Sequence record: NC_094493.1
Strand: one strand, 5' to 3'
From: a phage
DNA: 64,000 nt
Below are positions 32,171 through 38,270 of the stretch, in pieces. The position numbers were made by a program, and so were the translations under genes. The notes under the pieces were generated by a model. It did no database searches and was not told where the DNA came from. It saw nothing but the letters and a program-made list of their open reading frames with translations. Numbering within the stretch: the stretch's first letter is position 1; the number at the start of each line of letters is the position of its first letter.

Positions 32171-32245
32171 GCCCTGTTAGCTTAGTGGATAAAGCAGCGG
32201 CCTTCTAAGCCGTTGACACTGGTTCGAGTCCAGTACGGGGTGCCA
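32171..32245 (+). tRNA. tRNA-Arg (anticodon TCT)
   Basis: cloverleaf drawn by hand: acceptor gccctgt/acggggt, anticodon loop cttctaa, T-loop ttcgagt, encoded CCA. Confidence 0.75.
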
Positions 32246-32249
32246 AATT

Positions 32250-32336
32250 GGGGAGTTATCCCGTAGAGGTAGCGGTGTAGACTGTAAATCTATTGTCATT
32301 GCGACTCGGGTGGTTCGACTCCACCACTCCCCACCA
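32250..32336 (+). tRNA. tRNA-Tyr (anticodon GTA), long variable arm
   Basis: acceptor ggggagt/actcccc, anticodon loop ctgtaaa, T-arm ggtgg-ttcgact-ccacc, CCA; 87 nt. Confidence 0.75.
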
Positions 32337-32450
32337 AATTTATATTTTTAGATGCATAAATAATACAGATAATGGCATTGATATTTATCGTCGTTTATAC
32401 TAGTCACTAACTGCTCGAAAATCAGTGTCATTATCAGTATAATTTATAAA

Positions 32451-32541
32451 GGAGGGTAGGGAGCAATGGTGCTCAAGCGGTCTTGAAAACCGTCCCGTTG
32501 AGGATGACTCGATGATGGTTCGATTCCATTACTCTCCGCCA
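32451..32541 (+). tRNA. tRNA-Ser (anticodon TGA), long variable arm
   Basis: acceptor ggagggt/actctcc, anticodon stem gcggt/accgt with loop cttgaaa, T-loop ttcgatt, CCA; about 91 nt. Confidence 0.7.
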
Positions 32542-32639
32542 CATTGTTGACCTTGTAATTAAGCGAAAGCCGGAAGCAGAACCGGATTATCAAATGTTAC
32601 AGTCGTCATCGCCGACTAGCAACATGGTCAACATACTGA

Positions 32640-32736
32640 GCTAGGTAAGCCCTTTGGCAAGGGCGAGGATTTTTAATCCTGAAAATAGACGAGGTAGTCG
32701 TTGAATACATAGGTGGTTCGATTCCATCACCTAGCA
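32640..32736 (+). tRNA. atypical tRNA-like gene (possible tRNA-Lys TTT variant, about 97 nt)
   Basis: acceptor gctaggt/acctagc, D-arm gccc...gggc, T-arm ggtgg-ttcgatt-ccatc; anticodon arm aggatttttaatcct ambiguous; about 30-nt extra arm; no CCA. Confidence 0.45.
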
Positions 32737-32743
32737 CCTTTTT

Positions 32744-32819
32744 GCTGATGTAGCACAATCGGTAGTGCAATTGATTTGTAATCAATAGGTTGTAGGTTCA
32801 AGTCCTGCCATCAGCACCA
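32744..32819 (+). tRNA. tRNA-Thr (anticodon TGT)
   Basis: acceptor gctgatg/catcagc, anticodon stem attga/tcaat with loop tttgtaa, T-loop ttcaagt, CCA. Confidence 0.75.
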
Positions 32820-32820
32820 A

Positions 32821-32895
32821 GGCCCTGTAGCTGGAAGGTTCAAGCAAGCGACTCATAATCGCCAGACGGTGGTTCAATTCCACCCAGGGCCACCA
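32821..32895 (+). tRNA. tRNA-Met/Ile2 (anticodon CAT), elongator-type
   Basis: acceptor ggccctg/cagggcc with paired 1-72, anticodon loop ctcataa, T-arm ggtgg-ttcaatt-ccacc, CCA. Confidence 0.7.
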
Positions 32896-32906
32896 AATAG
32901 TAAATA

Positions 32907-32983
32907 CTCCGCGTAGCTCAGCTTGGTAGAGCGCCTGATTTGGGATCAGGAGGTCGAGTGTTCGAATCACTCCGTGGAGACCA
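32907..32983 (+). tRNA. tRNA-Pro (anticodon TGG)
   Basis: acceptor ctccgcg/cgtggag, anticodon stem cctga/tcagg with loop tttggga, T-loop ttcgaat, CCA. Confidence 0.75.
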
Positions 32984-33404: not shown

Positions 33405-33803
33405 ATGATTTCAGTTTTAACATGGCTGAGTAGGTATAGAGGGATCATAAAAGGTTTAGTTTTTGCAGCTGCGATAGGTACAGCTTATCTTGGAGCCGTG
33501 TATTGGTTTAACTCTAAGCTTAATGATGCCTACCAAGAAGGTGTGTCAGCAACAGAGTTAAAGTGGGAACGGATCCTTGATCAGCAACAAAAGCAGGCCG
33601 ACAAAATTAAAATGGGCCACGCAGAGGAGGTTAAAAACCTTGAAAAATCCCTTTCTGACCTGCAGGATAAATTAAATATGGCTGAGAAGGCAGGTAAAGA
33701 AAAGCAGATTATTTACCTCCAATCACCTGAGGGTAAGAAGTCAACACTCCCTGATCAGCTTATAGATATTTATAATGAGAGTATTAATCAGGAGGGTCGA
33801 TGA
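33405..33803 (+). CDS. i-spanin (Rz-like)
   Basis: 132 aa; N-terminal TM helix IIKGLVFAAAIGTAYLGAVYWF then charged coiled-coil region; 4-nt overlap with lipoprotein gene. Confidence 0.5.
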   Translation: MISVLTWLSRYRGIIKGLVFAAAIGTAYLGAVYWFNSKLNDAYQEGVSATELKWERILDQQQKQADKIKMGHAEEVKNLEKSLSDLQDKLNMAEKAGKEKQIIYLQSPEGKKSTLPDQLIDIYNESINQEGR

Positions 33804-34087
33804 GAGTTGCTGCACTGTTTATTGTGTGCTTGTTATTGTGTGGGTGTGCAACCAGCGTTGAGAGAGAATACAAGATTGACCCTCCAGATGTAGGAAGGTT
33901 GATTGTTAAACCCCCGGAAGGTGCCATGAAACCACCTGCTAAAGCTATACCTTTAAAGAAAGGTGCGCCAGATGCGGTGAATTCTGGCATTATGAGGGAT
34001 AATAATCTGTCTTGTAGCAATGATAGAGCTAAATTGATCATTTTGCAAGACTATATTAGAACACTGTTTCCAAAGGAGAGAGGTTAA
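33800..34087 (+). CDS. o-spanin (Rz1-like lipoprotein)
   Basis: 95 aa; signal peptide with lipobox LLLCGCAT, Pro-rich mature part. Confidence 0.55.
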   Translation: MRVAALFIVCLLLCGCATSVEREYKIDPPDVGRLIVKPPEGAMKPPAKAIPLKKGAPDAVNSGIMRDNNLSCSNDRAKLIILQDYIRTLFPKERG

Positions 34088-34830
34088 TGTCTAAGATTTA
34101 CGGACCGTGTTCTGAAAAGCAGAAGATGATCCTAGAAAACGATGCAGATATTTTGGTAATCGGCGGTGCCGCAGGGTCTGGCAAGTCGTTCCTCTTGCAG
34201 TTGATGCCGCTTAAAATTATTGATGACCCCCACAGCTCTGTGGTTATGTTCCGAAGAACAACCCCACAGTTGGAAGGTGAGGGTGGACTATGGCCTAAAG
34301 CAGTAGCTATTTATAGTGATCTGCCTGAAAACATTAAGCCAAAGTTCAGAGAGAAGGATCATAAGTTCATTTTTCCACGGTTTGATCCGAACACTGGCAA
34401 GTGGGATAGGAGCAAAAAGGGAGCTGTTGTAAAATACTGCCACATGGAGTATGTACAAGATAAGCTTAACCATCAAGGGCTTGAGTACACCATGGTTTGC
34501 TTCGATGAGGGAACGCAGTTCGAATGGGAGCAGATAGACTATCTGATGTCTCGTCTGCGATCTCAGTCAAAGTATCCATCAAGAATGGTTATCAGCTGTA
34601 ACCCAGATTCAGAACACATGCTTGCCAAACTGGTTAGATGGTGGTTGGACGATGAAGGGTATCCAGATCCGGAGAAATGCGGTAAGAAAAGATATTTTAT
34701 CCGACGCGACGGTGAATTTATCTGGGGAGACTCTAAAGAAGAGTTGATAGAGAAATACACCACGGTTAACGGACTGGGTGTGGAGATCAAGCCAAGACCG
34801 TTGTCATTCTCGTTTATAGGCGCAACCATT
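34087..34830 (+). CDS. terminase large subunit, exon 1 (ATPase domain)
   Basis: Walker A LVIGGAAGSGKSF, Walker B MVCFDEGTQ; proposed 5' splice site after T34829/34830, in-frame TGA at 34834 lies in intron. Confidence 0.8.
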
Positions 34831-35830
34831 AAATGATAGTGGCTTCGTGCAGAAATGCACGTCGAATAACTTCGTTAATTGCTGGAAAATCCGATTGCTA
34901 AACGGACAATCAGCAGCTATAATTACCCTTCCGAACCTGTAGTAGGGAGATGTTTGAAATGAAAAATTTAGGCTTTTTAGGCTACAATCATTATTGTGCT
35001 ACATACGATGGCAGAATTTACAGTCTGTATTCTAATAAATTCCTCCATCCTAATGTGCAGAAAAAGACTGGCTATGCTATGGTAACTTTGTGCGAGGACG
35101 GTAAAAAGTTCCAAGTGCTCGTTCACAGAGTGATTGCTATGACTTTTGTTGATAATGATAATCCCAGCGTGAAAACTCAAGTAAATCACCTTGATGGCAA
35201 TAAGTTGAATAACGCCGCATGGAACCTTGAGTGGACAACACCTGAGGAAAACACACATCATGCTCATGAAATGGGACTTAAAAAGGACTATGTCAATAAA
35301 TACAGGTCCCTAGATGATGCCACTGCTCTTGAAATATGTAGACTGTTAGAGCAAGGTGCAAGGGTAAAAGACATTTGTGAAATGTTTGGTGTCAATCAAC
35401 CACTTGTAAGTGGTATAAAGAATGGCTCAGTATACCCAGATATTTCTAAAGAGTTTAACTTTAGAAAAGTGCCAACCTCTAATAGGATAAGTGAGCACAA
35501 GATAATAGGTATCTGCGAGGATCTTAGTGATAGGGTTTTGTGTGTAAATAAAATAGCTAAGAAGTGGGGCGTAAGTTTTAGTGTTGTTAAAGGAATAAAA
35601 GACCGTAAGACTTACACCTATATTTCAAACAATTACGATTGGTAATGTAGTTCAACGACTATCCCGAGAGGGAGTAGGGCGCAAGCTTATGGCGCTCGAA
35701 AAGCGAAGCACCCTGAGATGGGTGGTGATATAGTCTACTCTGCATGGTAACATGCAGCGGCACGTAATGGTGCGGAGGGTGGTGTTGCGACCACCTTTGA
35801 ATATAAGGATTCGATAATCCTGTCTGCTTG
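34831..35830 (+). mobile_element. group I intron with embedded HNH homing endonuclease gene
   Basis: ordered core elements P aattgctggaaaa (about 34877), Q aatcagcagc (about 34908), R gttcaacgacta (about 35649), S gatatagtc (about 35726); GACTA/TAGTC form P7; P9 hairpins downstream; boundaries +/-3 nt. Confidence 0.8.
34959..35645 (+). CDS. HNH homing endonuclease (intron-encoded)
   Basis: 228 aa from second ATG (RBS GGGAGA); HNH motif VNHLDGNKLNNAAWNLEWTTPEENTHH; ORF sits between Q and R. Confidence 0.85.
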   Translation: MKNLGFLGYNHYCATYDGRIYSLYSNKFLHPNVQKKTGYAMVTLCEDGKKFQVLVHRVIAMTFVDNDNPSVKTQVNHLDGNKLNNAAWNLEWTTPEENTHHAHEMGLKKDYVNKYRSLDDATALEICRLLEQGARVKDICEMFGVNQPLVSGIKNGSVYPDISKEFNFRKVPTSNRISEHKIIGICEDLSDRVLCVNKIAKKWGVSFSVVKGIKDRKTYTYISNNYDW

Positions 35831-36613
35831 AGAGACAACCCAGAATACCTTGCTTTCCTCGAAGGTCTACCAGAGCTGGAAAAAGCTCAGCTTCTCCATG
35901 GTAACTGGTTTGCAAAGCCTGAGGGTGCAAACTATTTTCAAAGATCTTTCCTTCGTGATGCCGATAGAGTACCTCTTGGGTCAGTATCTTGCAGGGCATG
36001 GGATAAGGCAGGAACCGAGAGAACTTCCGGTAATAAATTTCCTGACTTTACTGCCAGTATTAAGGTAAGTAAAGATAGCGACGGCTTTTATTACCTGTCC
36101 GGTGATTATTGTCCTGAGAACGTGGATGACGGGAGGTATTCCACAGGTCTGGAAGGCAAGTTCTGTAAAAAGGCTGGTGAACGAGATGTGATCATCAGGA
36201 AACAGGCGCAGTTCGATGGTGATGATTGCATAATCGTCTTCTCTGTGGACCCAGGGCAGGCAGGTAAGAGTGAGTTCTTAACCTCCTCCAGATCCTTGCT
36301 TGCCGAAGGGTTCAGGGTTGAAGAAGACCCAATGCCTTCCAACAAGTCTAAACTGACAAGGTTCTCACCTTTTGCCAATCTTGCCCAACAAGGAATGGTG
36401 AGGATTGTAAAATCCAGTTTCCATCCTGATACTCTGGAAGCATTTCTGACTGAACTTGAAAAATTCAACGGGGAAAGATCAACATTTAACAGAAAAGACG
36501 ACTGGGCCGACTGTGTAGCTTCTGCGATTAATTTCCTAGAGAAAGAGGAGGTAGCACTTCCTTGTGTGATTCCATCAATCTCATCACCTTCTATGTTCAA
36601 GCGTTTTATCTAA
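35831..36613 (+). CDS. terminase large subunit, exon 2 (nuclease domain)
   Basis: frame open without start/RBS; LLHGNW, VDPGQAGKSE and KDDWADCV motifs of terminase RNase H-like nuclease. Confidence 0.8.
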   Translation, partial: RDNPEYLAFLEGLPELEKAQLLHGNWFAKPEGANYFQRSFLRDADRVPLGSVSCRAWDKAGTERTSGNKFPDFTASIKVSKDSDGFYYLSGDYCPENVDDGRYSTGLEGKFCKKAGERDVIIRKQAQFDGDDCIIVFSVDPGQAGKSEFLTSSRSLLAEGFRVEEDPMPSNKSKLTRFSPFANLAQQGMVRIVKSSFHPDTLEAFLTELEKFNGERSTFNRKDDWADCVASAINFLEKEEVALPCVIPSISSPSMFKRFI

Positions 36614-36616
36614 GTG

Positions 36617-36645
36617 TTGCCAATCTTAATTAGATGTGGTACAAT
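36617..36645 (+). promoter_or_regulatory. sigma70-type promoter
   Basis: TTGCCA-17nt-TACAAT between terminase stop and portal start. Confidence 0.45.
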
Positions 36646-36663
36646 AAAGTAATTGGAGATACT

Positions 36664-36690
36664 AGCCCTCTGACGAGGGCTATTTTGTTA
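36664..36690 (+). terminator. terminator/attenuator-like hairpin in portal leader
   Basis: agccctc-tgac-gagggct stem-loop followed by ATTTTGTT. Confidence 0.4.
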
Positions 36691-36713: not shown

Positions 36714-38270
36714 GTGTCCAAAAAGAACCGCAGGAAACACAACGCCACAGCCAAAACTGTGAATAAATCTGGGAACGCAGGCGCACCAACTCATAATGTT
36801 CGTATGAGTGAGATCGGTTCTGGCGCACTTTCCCAAATTATGGCAGAATCGCAATCTATGATGGTTGAGGAATTGCGTTGGCCTCAGCTGATTGCCACAG
36901 TGGAGACTATGAAATGTGATTCCACAGTTGCTACTGCCTTAGATACAAAATATGTTTTCATCACGAAAGCATTCAATGATTTTAAGATCCTTTATAATGT
37001 TAAAAGTGAAGACTCTAAGAAAGCTGCCGAGCTTATAGAGTATTCTTTGCGTAATTTGGCAAACCAACAAACTCTTCGAGATATTGCAAGAAGCGCAGCT
37101 ACCTTTAACGAGTATGGTTTTTCACTGTTTGAGAAAGTATACCGCAGAGAGAAAGAAGGTAAATATGCCGGGATGCTTCTTATCGATAAAATTGCATTCC
37201 GACCTCAGGCCAGCCTGTCCAGATCAGAGCCGTTTGTTTTTGATAAGAATAGCAGAACACTGACAGGTATTTATCAGTCACCTAATGCATTTCTAAACAC
37301 TCAGAATGCACGCTGGGCTGGACCTCTTGCTGCAATGCCTTCAAAAGGCTTTAATGAGCCTGAAATTTTCATCCCTGCTAAAAAGCTTATGCTCATGACC
37401 CTGTCAGGAACAGAATCTAACCCTGCAGGTGTGTCACCTATGATAGGTTGCTACAGATCTTTCCGTGAGAAAGTTCTGATTGAAAACCTTGAGGTTGTTG
37501 GCTGTTCCAAAGACCTTGGTGGTGTGCTTGAGCTGAAAATTCCTTCCAATATTTTGAACAAGGCCAGCATTGACCCGAATTCAATGGAAGGGAGAATGGT
37601 TGCAGACCTTATGCTTGACGCAGCAAACGCCCATAGTGGTGAGCAAAGTTTCTTTATACTTCCGTCTGATAGAGATAAGTCTGGTAAAGAGCTTTACTCC
37701 ATGACCCTGAAGGGGGTTGACGGTATGGGCAAGCAGTATTCCACTAAAGATTTGATTGATGCCCGTAAGAAGGCGATTCTTGACCGTTTCGGTGCTGGCT
37801 TTATTAACCTCGGTAACGATAACGTCGGATCTTTCTCTCTGTCTGAGTCAAAACAGTCTATCCATGGTCATTTTGTTCAGCGTGATATAGATATTATCAC
37901 TGAGGCCTTCAATAAAGATCTTATTCCACAGCTTCTGGCATTGAATGGTATCATCCTTGAAGATGATGATATGCCTAAACTGAAACCTGGCCTGATTGAA
38001 GAGGTGGACATGGAGAGCTTCTCCAAGTTTGTCCAGAGGATCGGTGCTGTAGGTTACTTGCCAAAAACTCCTGCAGTAATTAATAAGATTCTTGAAGTAG
38101 GTGGGTTTGATGAAAGATTTGACGAGGACATGGATCAGGAAGAGCTAATGAAGCTCTTGGGCCAGGACATCAGTAGGGCTGGCGATGGAATGGCTGCAGG
38201 ATCCACTGGCAACGGCACTTCTAAGATGTCATCAACCAGAGATAATTCCATATCCAACATGGAAAATTAA
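36714..38270 (+). CDS. portal protein (putative)
   Basis: 518 aa, GTG start; position immediately after terminase large subunit; called from size and order only. Confidence 0.55.
   Translation: MSKKNRRKHNATAKTVNKSGNAGAPTHNVRMSEIGSGALSQIMAESQSMMVEELRWPQLIATVETMKCDSTVATALDTKYVFITKAFNDFKILYNVKSEDSKKAAELIEYSLRNLANQQTLRDIARSAATFNEYGFSLFEKVYRREKEGKYAGMLLIDKIAFRPQASLSRSEPFVFDKNSRTLTGIYQSPNAFLNTQNARWAGPLAAMPSKGFNEPEIFIPAKKLMLMTLSGTESNPAGVSPMIGCYRSFREKVLIENLEVVGCSKDLGGVLELKIPSNILNKASIDPNSMEGRMVADLMLDAANAHSGEQSFFILPSDRDKSGKELYSMTLKGVDGMGKQYSTKDLIDARKKAILDRFGAGFINLGNDNVGSFSLSESKQSIHGHFVQRDIDIITEAFNKDLIPQLLALNGIILEDDDMPKLKPGLIEEVDMESFSKFVQRIGAVGYLPKTPAVINKILEVGGFDERFDEDMDQEELMKLLGQDISRAGDGMAAGSTGNGTSKMSSTRDNSISNMEN

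Follow-up and report, generated by a model that had tools for sequence, protein, structure and literature searches.

It is textbook biology that essential phage genes, among them that of the large terminase subunit (TerL), can harbour group I introns encoding HNH homing endonucleases. The introns of T4 td and nrdB are of the phage IA type (IA2), with a homing endonuclease ORF looped from P6; the td endonuclease, I-TevI, is of the GIY-YIG type and the T4 host genes belong to nucleotide metabolism, not to packaging. Among HNH enzymes, I-HmuI is encoded by the DNA polymerase intron of Bacillus phage SPO1 (PDB 1U3E). In terminase genes, a group I intron is cited for the large subunit of Lactobacillus phage LL-H (Mikkonen and Alatossava 1995, as cited in PMC3606486), and the TerL intron of Pectobacterium phage CB7 was found by RT-PCR to be spliced in vivo (PMC7344957). 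The closest described case is phage rV5 (V5): in GenBank DQ832317 its TerL coding sequence joins three exons and an "HNH homing endonuclease" is annotated, and a section of Kropinski et al. 2013 (PMC3606486) headed "Introns in terminase" deals with it, the inference being made by BLASTX only.

The DNA analysed here (the window, 64,000 nucleotides, NC_094493.1) comes from an rV5-like Vequintavirus infecting E. coli. Its TerL gene is interrupted at GATI|FDNP by the same element as the downstream TerL intron of rV5, which carries ORF65: the site is identical and nucleotide identity is 98.0% over the whole 993-nt query. The feature is thus real but already known, because it is annotated in the rV5 reference genome (DQ832317) and was described in 2013 (PMC3606486). 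rV5 differs in that its Walker B codons, further upstream, hold a second group I intron, 319 nt long and without an ORF; this site is empty in the window, where TerL is a two-exon gene as in phages ECML-10 and YP-6. The CB7 TerL intron shares its core motifs with the window intron, with a distantly related HNH protein (26.5% identity). We considered it as an ortholog and rejected it, its site being VD|EG in Walker B, not GATI|FDNP; since it occupies this different TerL site, the RT-PCR result supports splicing in the window only indirectly.

We propose that positions 34830-35808 are very probably a mobile phage intron of group I, IA type, within TerL. The preliminary description, made from the letters alone, had proposed a group I intron with an HNH homing endonuclease splitting this gene, and Rfam matches, covariation, splice sites, HNH homology and exact excision all bore it out.

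The interrupted terminase gene and the intron ends

The gene was divided as follows.

34087-36613, + strand: interrupted TerL gene
34087-34829, + strand: TerL exon 1 (ATPase domain; residues 1-247 and the first two bases of codon I248); Pfam Terminase_6N, E = 6.8e-17; phrog_9526/979; aligned to I29 TerL nt 1-743
34830-35808, + strand: group I intron, 979 nt, IA-type with P7.1/P7.2; ends fixed by alignment to the intron-less allele; RF00028 matches in each half
35809-36613, + strand: TerL exon 2 (codon I248 from its third base, followed by FDNPVCLRDNPEY..., nuclease domain, to the stop codon); Pfam Terminase_6C; phrog_979/9453

In-silico excision of 34830-35808 restored a TerL of 515 aa with 100% identity to that of phage I29, whose gene has no interruption, and exon 2 aligned to I29 TerL nt 744-1548 with 99.9% identity. 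Comparison with an intron-less allele, a check already suggested in the preliminary description, fixed the precise site, at 35808/35809 for the 3′ end, so that both intron ends were set by this allele independently of the ribozyme model. The intron starts after U34829, which forms a wobble with G34839 in P1, and its last nucleotide is G35808; both splice sites are therefore of the canonical group I form. The insert had initially been placed at 34831-35830, with a junction GATI/(R)DNPEY and a TerL of about 508 aa; because the 3′ splice site lies 22 nt upstream of that placing, the correct junction reads GATI|FDNPVCLRDNPEY, for a product of 515 aa. The (I/L)|xDN motif at the insertion site is conserved in an alignment of five diverged TerLs, the nepoznato row being disregarded. 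A PDB sequence search with the spliced TerL returned zero matches.

Without splicing, read-through of the N-terminal ORF (34087-34836) stops at the in-frame TGA 34834-34836, the codon where the ATPase half had been said to end. This stop, two codons into the insert, rules out an intein. On the other side, the C-terminal frame opens at 35807, just after the TAA 35804-35806 closes the same frame, and coding homology of exon 2 begins at 35809-35810, immediately 3′ of the terminal G35808 and one codon downstream of this TAA. We searched the downstream half for a translation start of its own and found neither an ATG or GTG nor a Shine-Dalgarno, the earliest candidate being TTG 35828, six codons in; the nuclease half had indeed been noted to lack start codon and ribosome-binding site.

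These ends bear on whether the insert is spliced at all or whether TerL consists of separate ATPase and nuclease polypeptides that assemble after translation. The NrdA of Aeromonas phage Aeh1 is reportedly split in this way by the mobE endonuclease gene, its halves assembling after translation. Many annotations list the two parts of TerL as genes of their own, each named "terminase large subunit", as in SophiaRose; phrog_9526 and phrog_9453 are half-length families, and an HNH insertion without splicing is reported for the nicotinamide phosphoribosyl transferase gene of CB7 (PMC7344957). However, a downstream half with its own start, as in the Aeh1 arrangement, is not what we observed: the window frame opens at the splice site itself, homology follows the terminal G directly and the first start comes six codons later with no Shine-Dalgarno. 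In addition, ORF-less intron copies of 268 nt persist and still break the TerL frame, and a complete ribozyme is kept by compensatory substitutions across subfamilies, which counts against a non-splicing insert because a maintained ribozyme would be purposeless if never spliced. We therefore consider two assembling polypeptides very improbable.

In the favoured intron model, TerL would be transcribed as a pre-mRNA in which the intron folds into a P1-P9.2 ribozyme. An exogenous guanosine would attack after U34829, held in the P1 U·G pair, and the freed 5′ exon would then attack after G35808, giving the ligated ...GGC GCA ACC AU|A UUC GAU..., the mRNA for the 515-aa TerL. The spliced junction would be expected to read ...GCAACCAU|AUUCGAUAAUCC...

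Ribozyme architecture and its conservation

The helices were mapped by hand on the RNA of the plus strand.

34826-34842, + strand: P1, exon CCAU and intron UA (34826-34831) with the internal guide UAGUGG (34837-34842); Rfam alignments, MFE fold, kept in all same-site homologs
34846-34861, + strand: P2 hairpin CGUGCA-GAAA-UGCACG; in homologs, 4/6 pairs differ in both bases
34870-34876, + strand: P3 5′ strand CUUCGUU, partner AGCGAAG at 35702-35708; 3/7 pairs compensatory
34880-34915, + strand: P4 (34880-34885 with 34910-34915; P and Q elements) around P5 (34890-34893 with 34903-34906); P4 fully (100%) paired, 3 of its pairs being compensatory and 2 of those in P5
34916-34927, + strand: P6 5′ strand GCUA (34916-34919) and P6a 5′ strand AUUACC (34922-34927), partners 35648-35651 and 35641-35646; P6a U-A becomes C-G in nepoznato
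35641-35661, + strand: region of the R element, with P6a and P6 3′ strands, J6/7 and P7 5′ strand GACUA (35657-35661); Rfam alignment, homolog mapping, covariation
35662-35697, + strand: peripheral hairpins P7.1 (35662-35673) and P7.2 (35677-35697); 4/6 pairs of P7.2 compensatory, MFE fold agrees
35702-35735, + strand: region of the S element, with P3 3′ strand (35702-35708), P8 hairpin (35709-35724), J8/7 and P7 3′ strand UAGUC (35731-35735); Rfam alignment, homolog mapping, covariation
35740-35797, + strand: P9 (35740-35757, GUAA loop), P9.1 (35760-35773) and P9.2 (35776-35797); compensatory in 5/7, 3/4 and 7/8 pairs

The P3-P8 and P4-P6 helices and the P7 pseudoknot built from P, Q, R and S were thus all located. 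The four elements stand in the order that had been proposed: P aattgctgg at 34877-34885, Q aatcagca at 34908-34915, R gttcaacgacta at 35650-35661 and S gatatagtc at 35727-35735. As suggested, GACTA (35657-35661) pairs with TAGTC (35731-35735) in P7, and the P1 U-G pairing drawn between exon ccaT and intron Gtgg (34839-34842) is exact and agrees with the Rfam alignment. Two of the three hairpins assigned to P9 were retained with compensatory changes in homologs, ctgcatg/catgcag being P9 itself and ggtggt/accacc lying within P9.2. The third, ggatt/aatcc (35807-35820), was rejected: it straddles the 3′ splice site, lies mostly in exon 2 (codons I-F-D-N-P) and is unconserved in nepoznato. The P7.1 and P7.2 hairpins sit between P7 and the P3 3′ strand; such hairpins are typical of subgroup IA. 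Likeness to the T4 and SPbeta introns would place the intron further as IA2-like.

A canonical P10 between the internal guide and exon 2 appeared weak by inspection of the sequence by eye (about 3 bp at most). The first six bases of exon 2 have their complement, UCGAAU, in J2/3 (34862-34867), and a pairing of the two could take the place of P10 in aligning the 3′ splice site, a proposal that we weigh below jointly with one on the promoter.

Covariation was assessed on 8 sequences, a small set that includes introns about 67-79% identical and in which the window, rV5, SophiaRose and RudolfGeigy rows are nearly identical: 96.4% of cells in the hand-mapped P1-P9.2 structure were paired (35-44% in slid controls), 38/78 pairs had changed on both sides, and 0/500 shuffles reached the paired or compensatory values. 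Av-05, an additional ORF-less sequence whose record breaks or inverts inside P9, was left out. P7 is invariant across the set and covariation is consequently silent on it. The fold of the core with the ORF deleted had z = -5.9, and its MFE structure reproduced P1-P6a, P7.1, P7.2, P8 and P9-P9.2.

We then considered whether the core likeness could be a coincidence, the insert being just a free-standing HNH gene and containing no ribozyme, given that the Rfam scan of the window gave no intron match at the gathering threshold of RF00028 (curated at 50 bits). In a permissive scan the two halves scored 34.8 bits (E = 6.9e-7) and 24.4 bits (E = 9e-4), below gathering because the 700-nt ORF in P6a splits the model. 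By contrast, the ORF-less allele of RudolfGeigy (locus positions 1553-1779), whose shared core is about 98% identical to the window, reached 95.6 bits (E = 5.9e-24). With this score, the covariation beating 500/500 shuffles and the fold z = -5.9, chance likeness is refuted, its probability being practically nil. A permissive scan of the whole window found no further split introns beyond 34830-35808.

RudolfGeigy (Bas52, MZ501102) has the same insertion site and the same P1-P5 and P7-P9.2 sequence as the window. Its intron measures 268 nt, with a compact 21-nt P6a hairpin where the window has a 732-nt segment holding the -10 box, the HNH ORF and the AUUACC/GGUAAU stem. Outside the rV5-like phages, the 3′ core of the window resembles the introns of Yersinia T7-like gp5, of T4 td and nrdB and of SPbeta (SPBc2) bnrdE. 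The likeness to td/nrdB is a 36-nt match, 92% identical, in J8/7-P7, whereas overall sequence similarity is low. With bnrdE, nucleotide identity is 75% over 92% of the 3′ core query, which would place both introns in one family of phage ribozyme cores by sequence, although the SPbeta host gene is that of a ribonucleotide reductase in a Gram-positive temperate phage.

The HNH ORF and its candidate promoter

Two features occupy or adjoin the P6/P6a region.

34959-35645, + strand: ORF of the HNH homing endonuclease, within the P6a loop; 228 aa with ATG 34959 as start (231 aa with ATG 34950); Pfam HNH_3, phrog_59, I-HmuI homology
34895-34923, + strand: sigma-70-like candidate promoter TTGCTA-17-TATAAT, -35 in the P5 loop and -10 in P6/P6a; 10/12 matches

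Insertion of the endonuclease ORF in the P6 region, as originally read, holds, the more exact position being the P6a loop; the ORF stop TAA (35643-35645) falls within the P6a 3′ strand. The product matched Pfam HNH_3 at 28.0 bits (cut-off 24.8), helix-turn-helix models and phrog_59 (E = 6e-51). It is of the I-HmuI type: in addition to the HNH motif scoring over the curated threshold, PDB 1U3E was matched with E = 3.1e-11, and the conserved region VHR...NHLDGNKLNN...NLEW aligns to I-HmuI. Homology covers residues 11-154, and the N-terminal sheet, the HNH core and the C-terminal helix-turn-helix architecture are common to both. The two differ in target gene and host and in length: I-HmuI has 174 aa, the window product 228-231 aa with an extra C-terminal helix-turn-helix repeat region.

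All HNH homologs begin with MKNLGF and are preceded by a GGAG Shine-Dalgarno. The HNH gene would be expressed from its own ribosome-binding site, and judged by its sequence the site at 34895-34923 is probably its promoter. At the TerL site this candidate was found in all three ORF-carrying lineages (rV5-like, Avunavirus and Phapecoctavirus), and the nepoznato intron carries TTGACA-17-TATAAT at the same position, while the ORF-less alleles are without TATAAT and lack the promoter. The count of promoter-like sites in the region was not above shuffled expectation. A hairpin hiding the HNH Shine-Dalgarno (34918-34975) was also tried, and was unsupported (fold z = -0.25).

The overlap raises the idea that the same bases may serve both RNA catalysis and, by way of a ribozyme-embedded sigma-70 promoter, an early, splicing-independent expression of HNH. 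Taken jointly with the J2/3 pairing as a substitute for P10, we regard this as a tentative proposal, on balance somewhat doubtful.

Distribution, mobility and annotation of the TerL intron

The GATI|FDNP site is uninterrupted in 95 phage records and holds an intron in 29, of which 18 carry the ORF and about 11 are ORF-less. Presence and absence were thus observed at one precise site among near-identical genomes, as in a mobile intron, and combined with presence or absence of the second intron, every combination was found among genomes >96% identical. Both TerL intron sites lie in conserved motifs, and near-identical phages show each of them with an ORF-carrying intron, with an ORF-less one or empty.

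Synonymous differences at CDS 690, 693 and 741 are common to the intron carriers and absent from ev146, in a comparison of few genomes; the exon differences that accompany the intron are clustered no further than about 55 nt from the insertion site. They are suggestive of co-conversion of flanking markers with the intron. Such a pattern would be compatible with homing: in a mixed infection, the HNH enzyme would nick or cut an intron-less TerL near GATI|FDNP, and recombinational repair would copy the intron in.

It could be argued instead that splicing continues but active mobility has been lost in this lineage, the HNH protein being inactive or having another role such as DNA packaging. The ORF is nevertheless intact in Avunavirus and Phapecoctavirus homologs, at 62-82% amino acid identity across genera, with its HNH motif aligned to I-HmuI, and all the presence/absence combinations among >96% identical genomes fit ongoing gain and loss. 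As for packaging, HNH proteins of that type form a different, stand-alone family located beside terminase genes. What speaks for an immobile element is the commonness of ORF-less alleles (about 11/29 carriers), which makes the ORF dispensable, and the packaging idea itself, raised in the CB7 paper (PMC7344957), where HNH proteins are cited as assisting packaging in some HK97-like phages (Kala et al. 2014, cited in PMC7344957). Weighing both sides, we find loss of mobility unlikely and retain the mobile intron.

In many deposited rV5-like genomes the essential TerL is called as two or three "terminase" fragments together with hypothetical proteins. The main value of the present analysis would lie in correct annotation, that is, of a single 515-aa TerL predicted to be made by splicing. 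The locus is, moreover, a clear natural example of the gain and loss of an intron and its endonuclease.

Exons and boundaries of the TerL insert

The terminase large subunit gene (TerL, 34087-36613) lies in a neighbourhood that agrees with an rV5-like genome (tRNA cluster, i-spanin/o-spanin pair, TerL, Mu-type portal). E. coli myoviruses of this type (Vequintavirus), with SophiaRose, HdK5 and rV5 (V5) among the close relatives, match the gene over its full length at 96-99% nucleotide identity.

Features in and around TerL (positions in NC_094493.1)
32171-32983, tRNA cluster of seven genes (Arg-TCT, Tyr, Ser-TGA, Thr, Met, Pro and one odd member)
33405-33803, i-spanin, overlapping o-spanin, directly upstream of TerL
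33800-34087, o-spanin, lipoprotein (lipobox LLCGC), directly upstream of TerL
34087-34836, TerL N-terminal ORF, ATPase domain (Pfam Terminase_6N, phrog_9526/979)
~34512|34513, second TerL intron site, empty here (Walker B codons, CFDEG|TQF)
34895-34923, candidate sigma-70-like promoter (TTGCTA-17-TATAAT; -35 in P5 loop, -10 in P6/P6a)
Open from 35807, TerL C-terminal nuclease half (Pfam Terminase_6C, phrog_979/9453)
36617-36645, promoter-like site after TerL (TTGCCA-17-TACAAT with TG extension)
36663-36682, intrinsic terminator, rho-independent in the rV5 annotation, upstream of the portal gene
36714-38270, portal gene

The stop codon of o-spanin and the start codon of TerL overlap (TAATG, 34085-34089). 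The odd tRNA member (32640-32738, 99 nt) carries a long insertion; its anticodon is given as '???' by ARAGORN and it scores 35.5 bits against Rfam tRNA. About 18 records named 'Campylobacter phage' (MG065635-MG065690), with C. jejuni as the stated host, share 97-99% identity with E. coli rV5-like phages over TerL; probably the host label is wrong or the samples were contaminated.

As the preliminary description had proposed, the ATPase half terminates at an in-frame TGA (34834-34836) and the nuclease half, whose open frame is preceded by TAA at 35804-35806, has no start signals: the sole candidate, TTG 35828, is without Shine-Dalgarno sequence. Comparison with an intron-less allele, also proposed there, gave exact boundaries of the insert. 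In the alignment with the uninterrupted TerL of phage I29, 34087-34829 corresponds to I29 1-743 and 35809-36613 to 744-1548, which fixes both exon ends and thus defines an insert of 979 nt (34830-35808). A shift of one base in either direction fails to reproduce the I29 sequence. The final exon base is U and the final intron base G, as group I chemistry requires. Intron excision exactly restores the TerL frame: exons joined in silico encode a 515-aa protein, 100% identical to I29 TerL, with the junction GATI|FDNPVCLRDNPEY. This corrects the junction first drawn, whose 3′ splice site lay ~22 nt too far downstream and which therefore lost seven residues (508 instead of 515 aa). The insertion point immediately precedes a motif, (I/L)|xDN...N.(D/E)Y, conserved among TerLs of 33-74% identity; homing-endonuclease targets typically sit in conserved motifs.

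A group I ribozyme within TerL

The P, Q, R and S elements, the P7 pairing and the P1 U·G pair (T34829/G34839) named in the preliminary description are all present where it placed them. Two of its three P9 hairpins were likewise found, while ggatt/aatcc was rejected: it spans the true 3′ splice site and is unconserved in Phapecoctavirus nepoznato. The covariance-model scan that it had suggested returned only tRNAs and no intron match over the whole window at the Rfam gathering threshold, because the HNH ORF splits the RF00028 model; under permissive settings RF00028 was matched twice, once per intron half (5′ half, P1-P6, 24.4 bits, E = 9e-4; 3′ half, P6-P9, 34.8 bits, E = 6.9e-7). At this same site several relatives, RudolfGeigy among them, have a 268-nt allele that lacks the ORF. 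The RudolfGeigy allele, which shares ~98% identity with the window across the common core, matched the full model with 95.6 bits (E = 5.9e-24).

On an ORF-deleted composite of the intron we mapped helices P1, P2, P3, P4, P5, P6, P6a, P7, P7.1, P7.2, P8, P9, P9.1 and P9.2. The presence of the P7.1/P7.2 hairpins places the intron in subgroup IA. The unconstrained MFE fold of the composite contained the same helices minus the P7 pseudoknot (z-score -5.9). Covariation was then examined in eight sequences: the window, rV5, SophiaRose, RudolfGeigy, Avunavirus 18-1-2 (79% identity) and nepoznato (67%), both at the same site, and related introns from another TerL site in Pseudoalteromonas phage J2-1 and Vibrio phage VpB-34. 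In this small set, where four of the eight rows are nearly identical, standard pairs filled 96.4% of cells versus 35-44% with partners slid by 1-3 columns, and both sides had changed in 38 of 78 pairs versus 3-9 in the slid controls. None of 500 shuffles reached the observed values on any measure. Compensatory changes stem from the divergent rows and touch all helices but P1, P7 and P7.1; P7, invariant across the eight rows, is uninformative.

The alternative, a non-splicing insert with the terminase made in two pieces, is unlikely, since exon 2 is without translation signals and the ribozyme, ORF-less copies included, is preserved by compensatory change. Within 34830-35808 lies a complete group I ribozyme, maintained by selection and bounded by canonical splice sites. 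The feature first described is real, and its reading correct except in where the 3′ boundary falls, in the junction and in one hairpin.

We also observed that J2/3 (UCGAAU, 34862-34867) and the opening six bases of exon 2 (AUUCGA, 35809-35814) are perfect complements. This pairing, present in the MFE fold and kept in nepoznato with a G·U, could represent a P10-like interaction, or it could be chance.

The HNH ORF and its cassette

The ORF between the TerL halves (228-231 aa; Pfam HNH_3 above cut-off, helix-turn-helix motifs; phrog_59, E = 6e-51) shows homology to I-HmuI, the HNH homing endonuclease from the intron of SPO1 (PDB 1U3E, E = 3.1e-11), and is an intact gene of this type in the P6a loop. 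The stem that closes the loop, AUUACC (34922-34927)/GGUAAU (35641-35646), contains the TAA stop in the 3′ strand and supports the earlier proposal of an ORF looped out of P6, a placement that resembles the T4 td and nrdB introns. Intact homologs occur in 18-1-2 (81.6% aa identity) and nepoznato (62.2%). As the homologs all open with MKNLGF behind a GGAG box, ATG 34959 appears a better start than ATG 34950 of the ORF list.

The candidate promoter at 34895-34923 lies ~30 nt upstream of this start. At the matching position nepoznato has a perfect consensus (TTGACA-17-TATAAT), and ORF-less alleles are without the -10 box. Since the region is no richer in promoter-like sites than shuffles are (8 versus 7.0), a promoter of the HNH gene's own embedded in the ribozyme is suggestive only. 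A hairpin masking the HNH ribosome-binding site was also looked for and found no support.

ORF-carrying and ORF-less alleles differ by more than a simple ORF deletion: a 732-nt segment (34918-35649) holding the -10 box, the Shine-Dalgarno sequence and the ORF, and closed by a stem of its own (AUUACC/GGUAAU), stands where the RudolfGeigy locus has a compact 21-nt P6a hairpin (L002:1651-1671). This exchange suggests that the endonuclease cassette moves as a unit. In the marine-phage introns the homologous HNH is flanked by the same closing stem.

Distribution, known relatives and mobility

Intron presence is polymorphic in the phage population: junction probes found 95 phage records uninterrupted and 29 with the intron, 18 of these with the HNH ORF. 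At the ~34512|34513 site an ORF-less group I intron of 319-320 nt (RF00028, 84-85 bits) is present in rV5, SophiaRose and RudolfGeigy, and an 883-nt version with an endonuclease VII-like ORF in rV5_ev146 and HdK5; the codons there are GGT ACA CAA in carriers versus the synonymous GGA ACG CAG in the window. All combinations of states at both sites were seen among genomes >96% identical. Relative to I29, synonymous exon differences are clustered in the ~55 nt before the intron (CDS 690, 693, 696, 729 and 741) and at +19; several are common to other intron carriers and absent from ev146. In these few genomes, such flanking markers would fit co-conversion.

The introns of J2-1 and IBT_VpB-34, 71-74% identical in the 3′ core, sit at TerL residues ~128-135, upstream of Walker B, and that of J2-1 encodes an HNH homolog (35% aa identity). 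Because this position differs, the family has three or more insertion sites in terminase genes. The Escherichia phage Av-05 record (KM190144) has its TerL exons on opposite strands and stops within a P9 hairpin nearly identical in both TerL introns, a pattern that looks like misassembly or inversion through common intron sequence.

The window's intron is already known, being the same element as the downstream TerL intron of rV5 (98% identical). In GenBank DQ832317, rV5 TerL is given as a join of three pieces, 'ORF64ABC', surrounding ORF65 ('HNH homing endonuclease'), and RudolfGeigy TerL is likewise a join in the BASEL collection. Kropinski et al. 2013 (PMC3606486) treat 'Introns in terminase' in a section of its own, refer to the earlier TerL intron of LL-H and credit D. 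Shub with defining the intron location. Splicing of a TerL intron in the related Certrevirus CB7 was demonstrated by RT-PCR (PMC7344957), but the site of that intron, VD|EG in Walker B, is not the window's; our literature search found no experiment on the window's intron itself. The 3′ core of the window's intron is also similar in sequence to the SPbeta bnrdE intron (75% identity, 92% query coverage), to DNA polymerase introns found in T7-like Yersinia phages and, for a short segment, to T4 td and nrdB. What is left as new is the J2/3–exon 2 six-base complementarity, maybe chance, and the possible ribozyme-embedded promoter.

In the proposed mechanism, TerL pre-mRNA would self-splice in two steps, initiated by guanosine, to yield the 515-aa protein, and the HNH protein would be translated from its own ribosome-binding site, possibly under its own promoter. 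During co-infections the enzyme would nick or cut intron-less alleles, and recombinational copying would follow.
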